Positions 1,167 to 4,434 of a stretch of 59,588 nucleotides of DNA are shown here, piece after piece. The stretch is from Patescibacteria group bacterium. GTDB lineage: Bacteria > Patescibacteriota > Saccharimonadia > Saccharimonadales > CAIOMD01. Where the stretch lies: positions 1-59,588 of the forward strand of contig DATKGW010000006.1 in assembly GCA_035510605.1 (NCBI GenBank), in the 5' to 3' direction. The translations under genes were made by a program, and so were the position numbers. The notes below the pieces were generated by a model that did no database searches, was not told the DNA's origin, and saw only the letters and a list, made by a program, of their open reading frames with translations. Every line of letters begins with the position of its first letter. The first letter of the stretch is position 1.

Positions 1167-1764
1167 CAAGAAGTTCATTCTAAATTATGCTGCGGATAAT
1201 GTAGTTCCTGAGGGCAATTGCAGCAGACAAGGATACATTTTTGTACCTCCTTATCTATCGATTCTTCCTTCCGATTGGATAAGGCTCGTAAATCGAGCTT
1301 AAACTCCTTTTATTCAGGGTTTCGATGGTGAAAAGCTAGCGTAGACAAATTTTTATTGTAGCCACAAATGGAACATCTTCCTACGTATTTTAGTACAACA
1401 GCACGTTTTCTTTTTAGACCTCTTGATTGTTGAGCTAAATATGATTGGAGATAGTTATTTTGACATTTTGGCGAACAATAAAGTTTCTGTTTACCTCTCA
1501 GTAGTTTCCCGCATTTTACGCAGGTTATGATATTATTCATAACCATTAGCACAACACGAATGATCTTGCAGGGCTACCTGAAAAGTAATTTTCAGGTGAT
1601 AATCTGTCAAATTCGGGGAAGCCTTAAATGGTAATCCCGAGCCAATCTCGCCTTGGCGAGCAGGTGTAGAGACTAAACGGCAGACATCCTTAAGCACAAG
1701 TCGAAGGATGAAGAGATAGTCCAGCTCACAAAGTCGAAAGATGTTGCGAAAGCAATAGTGAGAG
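1167..1764 (+). ncRNA. group I self-splicing intron (IC3-like core) in the anticodon loop
   Basis: The 5' exon ends in U1166 and the intron ends in G1764. Core blocks GUCAAAUUCGGGG (1606-1618), CCCGAGCCAA (1636-1645), GGUGUAGAGACUAAACGGCA (1663-1682) and GAUAGUC (1715-1721) match the Azoarcus/Anabaena pre-tRNA intron core as I recall it. UCUUG 1564-1568 pairs with the first five intron nt, CAAGA 1167-1171. Confidence 0.8.
1175..1552 (-). pseudogene. Zn-ribbon + HNH endonuclease gene, antisense to the intron, interrupted by an in-frame TAA
   Basis: The track ORF 1310..1552 ends ...AFHHRNPE at TAA 1310-1312. The same frame continues KEFKLDLRALSNRKEESIDKEVQKCILVCCNCPQELHY to TGA 1175-1177. It aligns with the intact paralog at 50965-51336 (DFHHDSLEKKDF...KCSVLCANCHRIVHY). 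CxNCH is changed to CNCP. Confidence 0.7.
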
Positions 1765-1902
1765 CATAACCGCTTGGTAGTTGGTTCGATTCCAACCGCC
1801 CCCACCACTTTAAGCATTGCTTAACTTAATCTACATAAAATGTAAGTTTTACTTATGCCTGTAGGTTATGTTAATAATTAACTGGTAAACCAAAATAAAA
1901 AC

Positions 1903-2856
1903 ATGGAAGACCAAACCGAAGAAAACCAACAATATGAGAACCTTCCCATACATCGAACTGAACTAAATGATCACACGGAAAACAATTTGACGGAACAAAA
2001 TCAATCGCTAAATGTAACAGAAGAGACAATCTCTTTCACTAAGCCAAAGCCAACCATACTGCACAGAAAGTTCAAGCCTACTTCTATAATCCAATTCCCA
2101 AAAAGGCCCTCGAAATTATTAATAGCAATTTTAGTTATTATCGTTTTGTTATTAGCTATATGCGCGGGTGCTACTTGCTGGTTCTGCGGTCGCAAGATGC
2201 CGACTTCCAGCTTGACCCAGAGTAACTCAAAGAGCAATAGCTCCAAAACCAACGCAGTCTCTAGTACCCCAACCCCCTTATGCAGTGTAGACTACAGCCA
2301 AGTTCCTAAAATGTCAGACTTTGCCGTTAAGGCAGATCAACTATGTGATGAAATTTATCCAAAAATATCGCAAAAACTAGGTAACGTTAATCCTCTTGAG
2401 AAAATTCAACTTGTGTTTGTAAAGTCGCAGCTAAATCCTGGTCAGACATCTGGCAACATTATTTCCCTAGACAGCAATTGGTACGCACAACATCCTGATG
2501 ACTTAGGCTCCATCGCCCATGAAATTACTCATGTTGTTCAGAGCTATCCCACAAATGTTTCCTGGATTACGGAAGGGATGGCTGATTATATCCGATATTG
2601 GGCAGGCTATCAAACCAGTTGGAGCTATCCTCATTGCGGTGCGGGTAGTCTAAGCTACACTTCGGGGTATTGGTGTGCTGCCACCTTTTTACGTTTTATA
2701 GAAAAAACATATGATCCGAATATTGTTCCAGAATTGAATAGCGCCTTAGATAATAATAACTACAATGATTCATTGTTCGTATCATATACAGGAAAAGATT
2801 TATCGCAGTTATGGGCCGAATGCATAATGCAAGACTGTGCCGGAGGCTCCCCCTAA
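1903..2856 (+). CDS. membrane-anchored HExxH metallopeptidase-like protein (basic secretory protein/BSP-like)
   Basis: One TM helix (LLIAILVIIVLLLAICAGA), a Ser/Thr linker, then SIAHEITHVVQ...WITEGMADYIRYW. Confidence 0.45.
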   Translation: MEDQTEENQQYENLPIHRTELNDHTENNLTEQNQSLNVTEETISFTKPKPTILHRKFKPTSIIQFPKRPSKLLIAILVIIVLLLAICAGATCWFCGRKMPTSSLTQSNSKSNSSKTNAVSSTPTPLCSVDYSQVPKMSDFAVKADQLCDEIYPKISQKLGNVNPLEKIQLVFVKSQLNPGQTSGNIISLDSNWYAQHPDDLGSIAHEITHVVQSYPTNVSWITEGMADYIRYWAGYQTSWSYPHCGAGSLSYTSGYWCAATFLRFIEKTYDPNIVPELNSALDNNNYNDSLFVSYTGKDLSQLWAECIMQDCAGGSP

Positions 2857-2951: not shown

Positions 2952-3524
2952 GTGGGTAAACTCCAAAAAAACCAAAGTGGTTTTAGTGCAATCGAAGCCA
3001 TACTAATTTTAGTAATTATTATTGTTATTGGCGGTGTTGGCTACTATGTCTATAATTCCAGAAACAAAACAGACAACACTTTGAATACTACGGTTCAAAC
3101 CAATACAACAGTTCCTGCGGTCAAATATGTAACAATTAGCCAATGGGGAGTCAGAGCGCCTTATTCTGGTAGTTTAACAATGCAATATACAATTGACCCG
3201 AGTAATCCCAATAGCGTTTTACTTACGTCGGCTCAATTAGTTGCATCAGATATAGCTTGTAATACAGATTCTGCTAAATTTATGATTACGAGATATCATG
3301 CTGATGATCAGGTGGTTGGCGAACTTGCTGCTAACGGTGGCACTGCTGCACAAGTTGCAGCAAACGTAGCAAAGACACAATATACCTATATTGGTGATTA
3401 TTACTATTTTGGTACCAGTGGCCCACAGGCAAACTGTGGAACAAGTCAGGCTTCTATTAGTGCCCAGCAGCAAACAGCTCTTGCCGTTGATGCAATATTA
3501 CAAAAATTAGAAGCCGTTAAATAA
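2952..3524 (+). CDS. pilin-like protein with prepilin-type N-terminal cleavage/methylation motif
   Basis: N-terminus KNQSG|FSAIEAILILVIIIVIGGVGYYV (G-F-x-x-x-E followed by a hydrophobic helix). Confidence 0.7.
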   Translation: MGKLQKNQSGFSAIEAILILVIIIVIGGVGYYVYNSRNKTDNTLNTTVQTNTTVPAVKYVTISQWGVRAPYSGSLTMQYTIDPSNPNSVLLTSAQLVASDIACNTDSAKFMITRYHADDQVVGELAANGGTAAQVAANVAKTQYTYIGDYYYFGTSGPQANCGTSQASISAQQQTALAVDAILQKLEAVK

Positions 3525-3555
3525 TATATCTTTCAATTGATCAAATAGAAGACAG

Positions 3556-3628
3556 AAGCTTGTCATTTAGCTCCATGAATGTGTCTTCATGCTGATGAGC
3601 CCAAAAGGGCGAAAGCGAGTACATGCTT
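3556..3628 (+). ncRNA. hammerhead ribozyme, type III topology (stem III open)
   Basis: Stem I: CAUGAA 3574-3579 pairs with UUCAUG 3586-3591 (loop UGUGUC). CUGAUGA is at 3592-3598. Stem II: GCCC 3599-3602 pairs with GGGC 3607-3610 (loop AAAA). GAAA is at 3611-3614. Stem III: GCU 3570-3572 pairs with AGC 3614-3616, extended imperfectly out to 3556/3628. The predicted cleavage site is after C3573 (CUC|C). Confidence 0.8.
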
Positions 3629-3656
3629 TTGTGTGGTTTGGGTTATAATAATTGTC

Positions 3657-3901
3657 ATGACTGCGGATGAATTTACTAAACTCTTCAACCTATGAACAAG
3701 CGGTTTGATAAGATTGATAAGGTCTTAGAGGATAAAGCTAGTTCTGCTGATCTGCAGAGAGCTTTGGGGCTTCTTGACACACTGGCTAAGCGTCAAGAAA
3801 TCTCTGATGACGAGCGTTTAGTGATGGCTCATTAACTTACGTGCCTCCATGAATGGGTTGAACAAGCTGCTGCGCGCATTGATCTAAAGTTCGTCCATTG
3901 A
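3657..3901 (+). pseudogene. decayed small coiled-coil protein gene (one frameshift plus one in-frame TAA)
   Basis: There are three collinear pieces. MTADEFTKLFNL stops at TGA 3693-3695. MNKRFDKIDKVLEDKASSADLQRALGLLDTLAKRQEISDDERLVMAH (3692-3832) stops at TAA 3833-3835. The same frame then continues LTCLHEWVEQAAARIDLKFVH to TGA 3899-3901. Confidence 0.5.
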
Positions 3902-4023: not shown

Positions 4024-4056
4024 AAAAAACCTCCCCTTAAAAAAGGGAGGTTTTTA
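4024..4056. terminator. bidirectional intrinsic terminator
   Basis: CCTCCC 4030-4035 pairs with GGGAGG 4045-4050, flanked by an A-run and a T-run. It lies just downstream of the minus-strand RRM gene. Confidence 0.7.
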
Positions 4057-4074: not shown

Positions 4075-4434
4075 TTACCAGCTTTTTTTACGGAATGAAC
4101 CGCGATCTCCACCACCGCCATTACCGCCGTGGTAACCACCGCGATCTCCACCACCATTTCCGCCAAAGTCGCGACGTGGGTGATCTTCGCGTGGACGAGC
4201 TTCGTTCACAACGATTTCACGGCCATCGAGTTCTTTGCCGTTCATAGCAGCTTCGGCAGCTTTGCCTTCGGTCTCATCTTCGAACTCCACAAAGCCAAAC
4301 CCTTTGCTGCGGCCACTATTGCGATCTTTCACAACAGTTGCGCTGACAACGGTGCCAAATGGAGCAAAAGCAGCCTGCAAGGCAGCGTCATCAGTATTCC
4401 ATGATAGGCTGCCAATAAATAACTTATATGCCAT
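4075..4434 (-). CDS. RNA-binding protein (RRM domain, Gly/Arg-rich tail)
   Basis: RNP-2 KLFIGSL, RNP-1 KGFGFVEF, and a C-terminal GGNGGGDRGGYHGGNGGGGDRG tail. Confidence 0.9.
   Translation of the reverse strand: MAYKLFIGSLSWNTDDAALQAAFAPFGTVVSATVVKDRNSGRSKGFGFVEFEDETEGKAAEAAMNGKELDGREIVVNEARPREDHPRRDFGGNGGGDRGGYHGGNGGGGDRGSFRKKSW

Follow-up and report, generated by a model that had tools for sequence, protein, structure and literature searches.

A compact type III hammerhead ribozyme sequence between a pilin-like gene and a decayed gene in a Patescibacteria contig

Between a type IV pilin-like gene and a decayed small gene of a Patescibacteria group bacterium (assembly GCA_035510605.1, contig DATKGW010000006.1) lies an intergenic stretch that bears the core of a hammerhead ribozyme. 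The locus raises two questions: whether this element is a genuine ribozyme, and which of the two neighbouring transcripts, if either, its cleavage would serve. The window, as the term is used here, is the whole stretch of 59,588 nucleotides that was analysed, and features lie on its plus strand unless another strand is given. The initial annotation had described a complete core with U16.1-C17, CUGAUGA, stem II, GAAA, a stem I hairpin and an imperfect, open stem III, and each of these was found where it had been placed when the sequence was read again.

The compact 55-nt type III hammerhead, delimited by the full span of a family-specific covariance model (R1), occupies positions 3566 to 3620, and the element reaches from 3556 to 3628 when the distal extension of stem III in the minimum free energy (MFE) fold is included. 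The core-proximal 5' strand of stem III, comprising G16.3, C16.2 and U16.1, lies together with C17 at 3570 to 3573, and the predicted scission site falls between 3573 and 3574. Stem I (3574 to 3591) is a 6-bp hairpin in which CAUGAA (3574-3579) pairs with UUCAUG (3586-3591) around loop I, UGUGUC. The catalytic core strand C3-U4-G5-A6-U7-G8-A9 (CUGAUGA, 3592 to 3598) agrees with the Rfam alignment consensus and has the form C3-U4-G5-A6-N7-G8-A9 that is required between stems I and II. Stem II (3599 to 3610) is the 4-bp hairpin GCCC-AAAA-GGGC, with the core closed by G10.1-C11.1, and is followed at 3611 to 3616 by G12-A13-A14 and by A15.1, G15.2 and C15.3, the proximal 3' strand of stem III. GAAA thus reads at 3611-3614, and the required G12-A13-A14, A15.1-U16.1 pair and non-G residue at H17 are present as GAA (3611-3613), A3614-U3572 and C3573. 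The three core-closing pairs, C3574-G3591, G3599-C3610 and A3614-U3572, are all canonical, in keeping with the acceptance rule of PMC3088659.

Stem III is the irregular part of the structure. Its proximal segment consists of three pairs, A3614-U3572, G3615-C3571 and C3616-G3570, beyond which follow an A3569-G3617 mismatch, two further pairs and a distal helix in which AAGCUUGU (3556-3563) pairs with ACAUGCUU (3621-3628) at 7 of 8 positions. The MFE fold of 3556-3628 (+) is exactly the hammerhead three-way junction, at -18.4 kcal/mol, and both this fold and the R1 alignment display type III topology, with loops capping stems I and II and both ends lying in stem III. With a z-score of -0.76, the fold of the element in isolation is unremarkable, and thermodynamic stability by itself would not flag the hammerhead.

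The specificity of the match was assessed against random sequence. Chance alone would yield the bare pattern CTGATGA-N6-30-GAAA 0.64 times per window. A lenient type III descriptor, demanding a stem I of at least 4 bp, a stem II of at least 3 bp, the U-H dinucleotide and a stem III of at least 3 bp, matched the window at the ribozyme site only. It returned no match in 82 million strand-bases of first-order Markov sequence, corresponding to a chance expectation below about 0.004 per window, and this absence excludes a chance origin.

Relatives of the element were retrieved with its core and stem II. The exact 23-mer CTGATGAGCCCAAAAGGGCGAAA was found in 12 IMG/VR viral contigs, and the same pattern with a free stem II loop occurred in 26 stretches of GTDB species genomes. 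Most of these core and stem II matches are type III hammerheads of one uniform 55-nt design. A narrower pattern yielded 88 more metagenome stretches, reducing to 62 distinct 55-mers, and the family comprises about 90 relatives of the same 55-nt geometry. Its design runs from a stem III of 3-9 bp through U-H, a 6-bp stem I and a 6-nt loop I of the form UGYGYN to CUGAUGA, a 4-bp stem II with the loop AAAA, and GAAA. U16.1 is invariant in 91 relatives, while position 17 is C, U or A and never G; loop I opens with U-G in at least 90% of relatives, the window copy included, and the AAAA of loop II is nearly invariant. The window copy has this geometry, with its 6-bp stem I, U-G at the start of loop I and 4-bp stem II capped by AAAA. 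For the tertiary contact of loop I with loop II, which in hammerheads supports fast cleavage at low Mg2+, the analysis covered the conservation of the two loop sequences.

Covariation provides evidence that these helices are maintained as helices. Stem I is 99.7-100% paired across relatives, with compensatory changes, and the inner pairs of stem II covary (GUCC/GGAC, GCUC/GAGC, GUUC/GAAC, GUAC/GUAC). In the first set of relatives, stem III, which played no part in selection, is 92.6% paired and includes four covarying pairs. In the second set only positions external to the pattern were scored, namely stem III, the outer half of stem I and the inner stem II pairs; these are 93-99.7% paired with many compensatory changes. 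Over both sets, pairing at pattern-external positions is 93-100%, with 142 and 252 double-sided changes, and slid controls reach 30-45% pairing (31-45% in the second set).

Model R1 was built from 27 relatives drawn from phage contigs and bacterial genomes, with the window left out. It matches the window over its full length (1-55) with 67.7 bits and an E-value of about 5e-22, as the sole match in 59.6 kb, and this score falls inside the 43-77 bits of subfamily members. About 23 nt of the R1 match follow by construction, because the window itself supplied the pattern used to collect the relatives; the pattern-independent parts are the cleavage dinucleotide, stem I, loop I and stem III. We therefore regard the element, with very high confidence, as a bona fide hammerhead sequence of the compact 55-nt family. 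The earlier assignment as a type III hammerhead with predicted cleavage after C3573 is supported by core identity, by family covariation and by the family-specific covariance model.

The Rfam check that had been proposed alongside that assignment gave a divided result. In E-value mode, RF00008 aligns locally to 3572-3614 through model positions 7-48 with 28.6 bits (E = 2.6e-4 on 301 nt, 0.052 on the whole window), which is borderline by itself. This lies under the gathering score, and at the curated gathering threshold of 48.5 bits Rfam reports no hammerhead in the window. Relatives score 27.5-41.8 bits against RF00008 in E-value mode, with some unreported, and among 19 relative-bearing loci scanned at the gathering threshold only another copy, on L008, passed, at 48.7 bits. 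The threshold miss was considered as counter-evidence and rejected, the whole compact subfamily falling under the same cut-off. Since 28.6 bits is typical of this subfamily, failure at the RF00008 cut-off says nothing against the window copy.

Comparison with characterized hammerheads places the element more closely. With RF00008 (clan CL00010) it shares an identical catalytic core (C3-U4-G5-A6-N7-G8-A9, G12-A13-A14, A15.1-U16.1 and H17) and an arrangement of three helices in which stems I and II are capped and stem III is open. It differs in that the window copy and the tested subfamily members, the L008 copy excepted, generally score under the gathering cut-off, in that the subfamily has a stem II of just 4 bp with AAAA and a loop I of UGYGYN, and in that the window copy resides in a bacterial chromosome rather than in a viroid, satellite or retrozyme.

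Knowledge of intergenic type III hammerheads in bacteria dates from 2011 (Perreault et al. 2011, PMC3088659; PMC6155905). In bacteria and phages, hammerheads lie on either side of single genes, and each ribozyme in a polycistronic transcript cleaves it in vitro (PMC3088659; PMC6155905), while the biological role of the bacterial examples has been described as an open question (PMC6155905). The window element resembles these bacterial and prophage hammerheads in being intergenic and beside small ORFs of unknown function. Its relatives, like the prophage hammerheads of PMC3088659, also occur as 3-4 copies flanking single genes, and the role put forward there, the cutting of long transcripts into gene-length mRNAs, is akin to the one considered here. 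In contrast to that system, the window holds a single copy with no evident integrase or prophage genes near it, and many Patescibacteria relatives adjoin housekeeping genes (prfB, ppa, clpP, RNase T). In the literature searched, no pertinent paper connects hammerheads with CPR, Saccharibacteria or Patescibacteria, and the one paper that names both hammerheads and Patescibacteria concerns CCA-adding enzymes.

The distribution and surroundings of the family offer a guide to function. Patescibacteria account for 15 of the 20 compact type III matches in species genomes, by rough estimate far above the share of sequenced bases held by this phylum, and the compact design is abundant both in phage contigs and in Patescibacteria (CPR) chromosomes, including those of Saccharibacteria, the probable source of the window. 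Arrays of 3-4 copies flanking single genes occur in phage contigs and some Patescibacteria contigs (L008, L015, L034, L043). The neighbours of the Patescibacteria copies are ordinary chromosomal genes, often core rather than prophage genes, and include those for release factor 2 (prfB), inorganic pyrophosphatase (ppa), ClpP, a NUDIX hydrolase, an RNase T-type exonuclease and an RRM protein. According to counts based on raw ORFs, and hence approximate, the nearest upstream ORF is co-directional in 55 of the 80 family loci that had sufficient flank, and the median distance from its stop to the ribozyme is 60 nt (43 nt by the same measure at the window). The downstream ORF is co-directional in 41 of these loci and convergent in 27, and only 4 ribozyme copies lie within long ORFs. 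A strong GC-rich hairpin ending 0-3 nt 5' of stem III is found in about 30 of 41 relatives, with a family median of -16 kcal/mol for the upstream hairpin, whereas stretches drawn at random from these loci have a median of -7.1 kcal/mol (p=1.7e-10).

At the window, the upstream co-directional gene (2952 to 3524, +) is an ORF for a 190-aa prepilin-type, type IV pilin-like protein. Its N-terminus reads G|FSAIE and continues into a hydrophobic helix, with a weak N_methyl match, and its homologue P0125 carries the name 'prepilin-type N-terminal cleavage/methylation domain' protein; the pilin-like label given to this neighbour at first reading is borne out by both. The ORF ends at 3524, 31-32 nt before the element, and the ATG of the downstream gene stands at 3658, 29 nt after it, both in accordance with the spacings noted earlier.

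Homologue comparison identified the downstream gene (3658 to 3901, +) as the decayed form of one that encodes a conserved 81-aa protein of Saccharibacteria. It has lost 1 nt between 3690 and 3691 and is interrupted by an in-frame TAA at 3833-3835. The strain variants L060 and L061 retain the extra A, while the TAA is common to all copies; together, these patterns indicate that the decay is recent. The 81-aa protein has 172 homologues at E <= 0.001, and most of the 120 homologues listed are 81 aa long; the only one named by its source comes from a Saccharibacteria MAG. Searches of Pfam and PHROGs with the reconstructed protein returned no family. A TATAAT -10 box at 3644 to 3649 (+), 8 nt before the ATG, forms a leaderless-type promoter. 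Within the 81-aa family, all 6 loci compared have a TATAAT 5-8 nt ahead of the ATG while their remaining upstream DNA is unrelated, which endorses the earlier description of a decayed small gene with its own box. This conserved TATAAT, located past the ribozyme, marks the 81-aa gene as an independent, essentially leaderless transcription unit. Further downstream, a bidirectional intrinsic terminator at 4025 to 4055 (both strands) is the first terminator-like site past the pilin-like gene, and the terminator scan found none between 3524 and 4025.

Taken together, these observations favour the reading, to which we assign a probability of about 0.6, that the element is a genuine and active ribozyme with a 3'-end-forming or insulating role for the pilin-like gene. 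Polymerase would read out of this gene past its stop at 3524 into the ribozyme, such read-through being expected because no terminator precedes 4025. The ribozyme would fold co-transcriptionally and cut between C3573 and C3574, so that the pilin-like mRNA would keep a 49-nt 3' UTR with a terminal 2',3'-cyclic phosphate. The downstream RNA, beginning with a 5'-OH and spanning the decayed 81-aa gene together with its promoter, would be uncoupled from the message and probably degraded. If left uncut, the read-through transcript would extend about 450 nt further, across the pseudogene and as far as the terminator at 4025-4055. Because the leaderless promoter of the downstream gene lies past the ribozyme, the cut would mainly set the 3' end of pilin-like read-through and insulate, and we infer that the ribozyme is no device for expressing the downstream gene. 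The initial annotation had proposed that self-cleavage separates the two transcripts; separation is reasonable on this evidence, but the second cistron would not be liberated by it, having its promoter beyond the cleavage site.

Two well-described systems help to define what such a cut could achieve. The glmS ribozyme of Gram-positive bacteria generates a cleaved mRNA whose 5'-OH end is targeted by RNase J1. It resembles the window element in that self-cleavage inside a bacterial mRNA yields 2',3'-cyclic phosphate and 5'-OH products with different fates, and the logic of those fates is the one proposed for the downstream fragment of the window. It differs in its unrelated fold, its dependence on a metabolite and its place in a 5' UTR, from which it regulates the gene it belongs to, whereas the window ribozyme would be constitutive in design and located in a 3' UTR. 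RiboJ, a synthetic insulator made of a hammerhead plus a hairpin, uncouples the parts of a transcript. Its combination of hammerhead and adjacent hairpin recurs in about 30 of the 41 natural relatives; the hairpin of RiboJ is downstream, whereas that of the natural module is upstream, on the 5' product, and the window copy is without one.

The window copy departs from its family in ways that bear on whether it still works. The fourth stem III pair is formed in 87 of 91 members and replaced by the A3569-G3617 mismatch in the window, which is the sole sequence unpaired at this position among 64, with 3 of 27 unpaired in the other set. The subfamily trait of at least 4 contiguous stem III pairs is thus absent from the window. 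So is the upstream GC hairpin, the 47 nt upstream folding at -4.1 kcal/mol versus the median of -16. A U/G-rich segment at 3625 to 3644 (+) pairs over about 17 bp with 3598-3616 in the MFE fold of 3525-3660, and this competitor fold reaches -34.3 kcal/mol versus -29.1 kcal/mol for the hammerhead fold. The resulting misfolding penalty, 10.5 kcal/mol, is larger than that of any other among 87 family members in a context of +10/+30 nt and lies above 96.4% of shuffled downstream flanks, a marginal effect (p about 0.04). With longer flanks the window is no outlier, 16% of relatives being equally bad or worse. A second candidate competitor, an upstream helix of 3548-3554 with 3582-3588, was non-significant against shuffled flanks (p=0.18). 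As modelled with energies that leave out tertiary contacts and folding kinetics, the window copy would combine the weakest stem III with the least favourable folding context (+10/+30 nt) in the family.

These peculiarities lend substance to the rival that survives best, namely that the hammerhead is intact but vestigial or crippled, an insertion relic or a once-useful element that cleaves poorly or has no effect on fitness. We consider this unlikely. The short and singly mismatched proximal stem III, the missing hairpin and the folding context, worst of 87 relatives, all point in its direction, as does the adjoining 81-aa gene with its shared premature TAA and very recent deletion. It is further consistent with the lack of conservation of the ribozyme at homologous loci of either neighbour. 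Loci of pilin homologues at 39% identity (L053-L058) contain no hammerhead, and no hammerhead precedes the gene where intact 81-aa homologues occur in five other contexts (L046-L052, L062-L064). An unrelated hammerhead copy lies 2 kb from the 81-aa gene of L050. A metagenome search with the neighbouring 463-aa oxidoreductase gave no match, and searches with the pilin, the 81-aa gene and the oxidoreductase together found no diverged orthologue of the window locus. An all-against-all BLAST of flanking ORFs across hammerhead loci revealed no shared gene family involving the window. All 10 contigs that bear the locus are identical across the ribozyme. The window ribozyme is tied to neither neighbour gene.

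Against decay stand the roughly 15 invariant core and closing-pair positions, all of them unchanged, and perfect stems I and II. The distal helix of 7 out of 8 pairs compensates stem III, and three relatives (L031, L039, L040) likewise possess just 3 contiguous stem III pairs. The calculated energies, moreover, take no account of tertiary contacts between the loops or of the head start that local hairpins have in folding. An active element acting at the 3' end of the pilin-like message remains the reading we prefer.

The competitor helix also invites an interpretation in its own right, in which cleavage is kinetically gated. The ribozyme would have to cut before 3625-3644 is made, after which pairing with 3598-3616 would lock the uncut RNA in an inactive state, and the fraction of processed pilin mRNA would be set by transcription speed or by a factor. 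The advantage of the alternative helix over the hammerhead fold agrees with this, as does a penalty exceeding those of all 86 relatives and nearly all shuffled flanks. However, base composition accounts for most of the effect, with a promoter region rich in U and G set against a hammerhead 3' half rich in A and G; comparative support is absent, no diverged orthologue of the locus having been found; and with longer flanks a sizeable minority of relatives do as badly or worse. Gating is accordingly an improbable account of the locus.

Alternatively, the hammerhead might serve the downstream 81-aa gene, by giving its mRNA a defined 5' end or by releasing it from a polycistronic RNA. The family offers some encouragement, with a co-directional downstream ORF in about half of its loci (41 of 80) at a median of 59 nt past the ribozyme and some copies 13-50 nt before a start codon, as at prfB in L045, and a haloviral precedent exists (PMC3088659). 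For the window this is nevertheless very improbable. The 81-aa family brings its own TATAAT 5-8 nt before the ATG, which in the window is past the ribozyme, its homologues in the five other contexts do without an upstream hammerhead, and the window gene is a pseudogene. The RNA released by cleavage would, in addition, have its 5' end 84 nt ahead of the ATG and carry no evident ribosome-binding site.

Finally, a chance match, or a real feature on the minus strand in the form of a CRISPR-repeat-like or terminator-like hairpin, has a negligible probability, for the unmet Rfam threshold with its whole-window E of 0.052, the modest fold z-score and a weak minus-strand CRISPR-DR25 match (E=0.27) are outweighed by the empty 82 Mb of random sequence, the 67.7 bits of R1 and the roughly 90 covarying relatives of the same geometry, and the minus-strand reading was dropped, its only other feature being a terminator-like site at 3574-3555, and the window offering just one copy of the element with no repeat array.

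The ribozyme of the window was previously unannotated, while type III bacterial hammerheads as such were already known, and one more of them would be unsurprising to a specialist. The added value lies in the family-level pattern that it exposes. The RF00008 gathering score under-calls the whole compact subfamily, and the taxonomic bias, the housekeeping neighbours and the hairpin-plus-ribozyme architecture of this subfamily may merit dedicated study. We tentatively suggest, at odds clearly short of even, that the GC hairpin and the 55-nt hammerhead together constitute a chromosomal mRNA-punctuating, 3'-end-forming device that is widespread in Patescibacteria (CPR) and their phages and would lie a median of 60 nt past stop codons, beside both housekeeping and mobile genes. 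If this is true, the upstream message would end after cleavage in a protective hairpin and a cyclic phosphate, the module would partly replace intrinsic terminators or endoribonuclease processing in reduced genomes, and the window copy would form the 3' end of a type IV pilin-like mRNA of a Saccharibacterium. If the ribozymes are active, terminator-independent 3'-end formation and insulation would offer a testable function for bacterial hammerheads. Pilin genes matter for the epibiotic lifestyle of Saccharibacteria, and an active ribozyme at this locus would bear on pilin gene expression in these organisms.

Compact type III hammerhead ribozymes related to the one at 3566-3620 (+) of the window are commonly preceded by a strong GC-rich hairpin, which lies directly 5' of the ribozyme in about 30 of 41 copies (loci L008-L050), with a gap of only 0-3 nt between the hairpin end and the start of stem III. 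The region upstream of the hammerheads has a median folding energy of -16 kcal/mol vs -7.1 kcal/mol in control windows (p = 1.7e-10), and examples include L033 (605-651), L008 (5501-5545), L040, and L031. The GC-rich hairpin is absent upstream of the window hammerhead. In the hairpin-bearing relatives, cleavage would leave the upstream RNA with a 3' end consisting of the hairpin, 5-8 nt, and a cyclic phosphate. On the 3' side, a U-run immediately follows the ribozyme in L012, at about 2030-2052 (-), where U10 comes after GAAACGUC. In L033 (2109-2150, +), the second copy is followed by a distinct hairpin that resembles a terminator and carries a U-tract. Such elements directly after the ribozyme suggest that cleavage and termination may be combined in some relatives.

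Patescibacteria account for 15 of the 20 compact type III matches in GTDB species genomes, a raw, un-normalised count (L020, L022, L023, L025, L031, L033-L037, L040, and L042-L045), with Saccharibacteria, Paceibacterota, Adlerbacteria, Shapirobacteria, and other groups represented. Many of these copies adjoin housekeeping genes, namely prfB, ppa, clpP, NUDIX, and RNase T. Hammerheads of the same class also occur in clusters of 3-4, spaced about 150-1300 nt apart, at L034 (6888-7695, -), L043 (455-1583, -), L008, and L015; two of the clustered contigs belong to Patescibacteria, and single small genes are flanked by copies. Convergent to the window hammerhead lies a gene for an RRM-domain RNA-binding protein (4075-4434, -), and the unrelated Patescibacteria contig L042 likewise carries a convergent RRM ORF on the minus strand, 40-315 nt after the ribozyme core. 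As these are the only two cases, the pairing may be coincidence.

Elsewhere in the window, a ~600-nt group I intron, matched by Rfam RF00028 at 1557-1746 (+) with 73.8 bits, interrupts the anticodon loop of a tRNA with anticodon CAU (1134-1808, +). The 5' half spans 1134-1168 (+; GGGGGCGTAGCTCATCGGTTAGAGCAGGCGGCTCA) and the 3' half about 1767-1808 (+), ending in GGTTCGATTCCAACCGCCCCCACCA, with an HNH-like ORF on the opposite strand (1310-1552, -). ARAGORN made no call for this split tRNA in the window.

The decayed gene downstream of the hammerhead derives from a conserved 81-aa Saccharibacteria protein family, for which no Pfam or PHROG matches were found. A TATAAT box lies 5-8 nt 5' of the ATG in all six family loci compared (window 3644-3660; L046, L049, L050, L062, and L064), implying leaderless mRNAs. 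The premature TAA (window 3833-3835) is common to all contigs compared, and the 1-nt deletion at 3690/3691 is shared by the window and L059 but missing from the strain variants L060 and L061. The decay of the 81-aa gene is caught in these strain-level snapshots.
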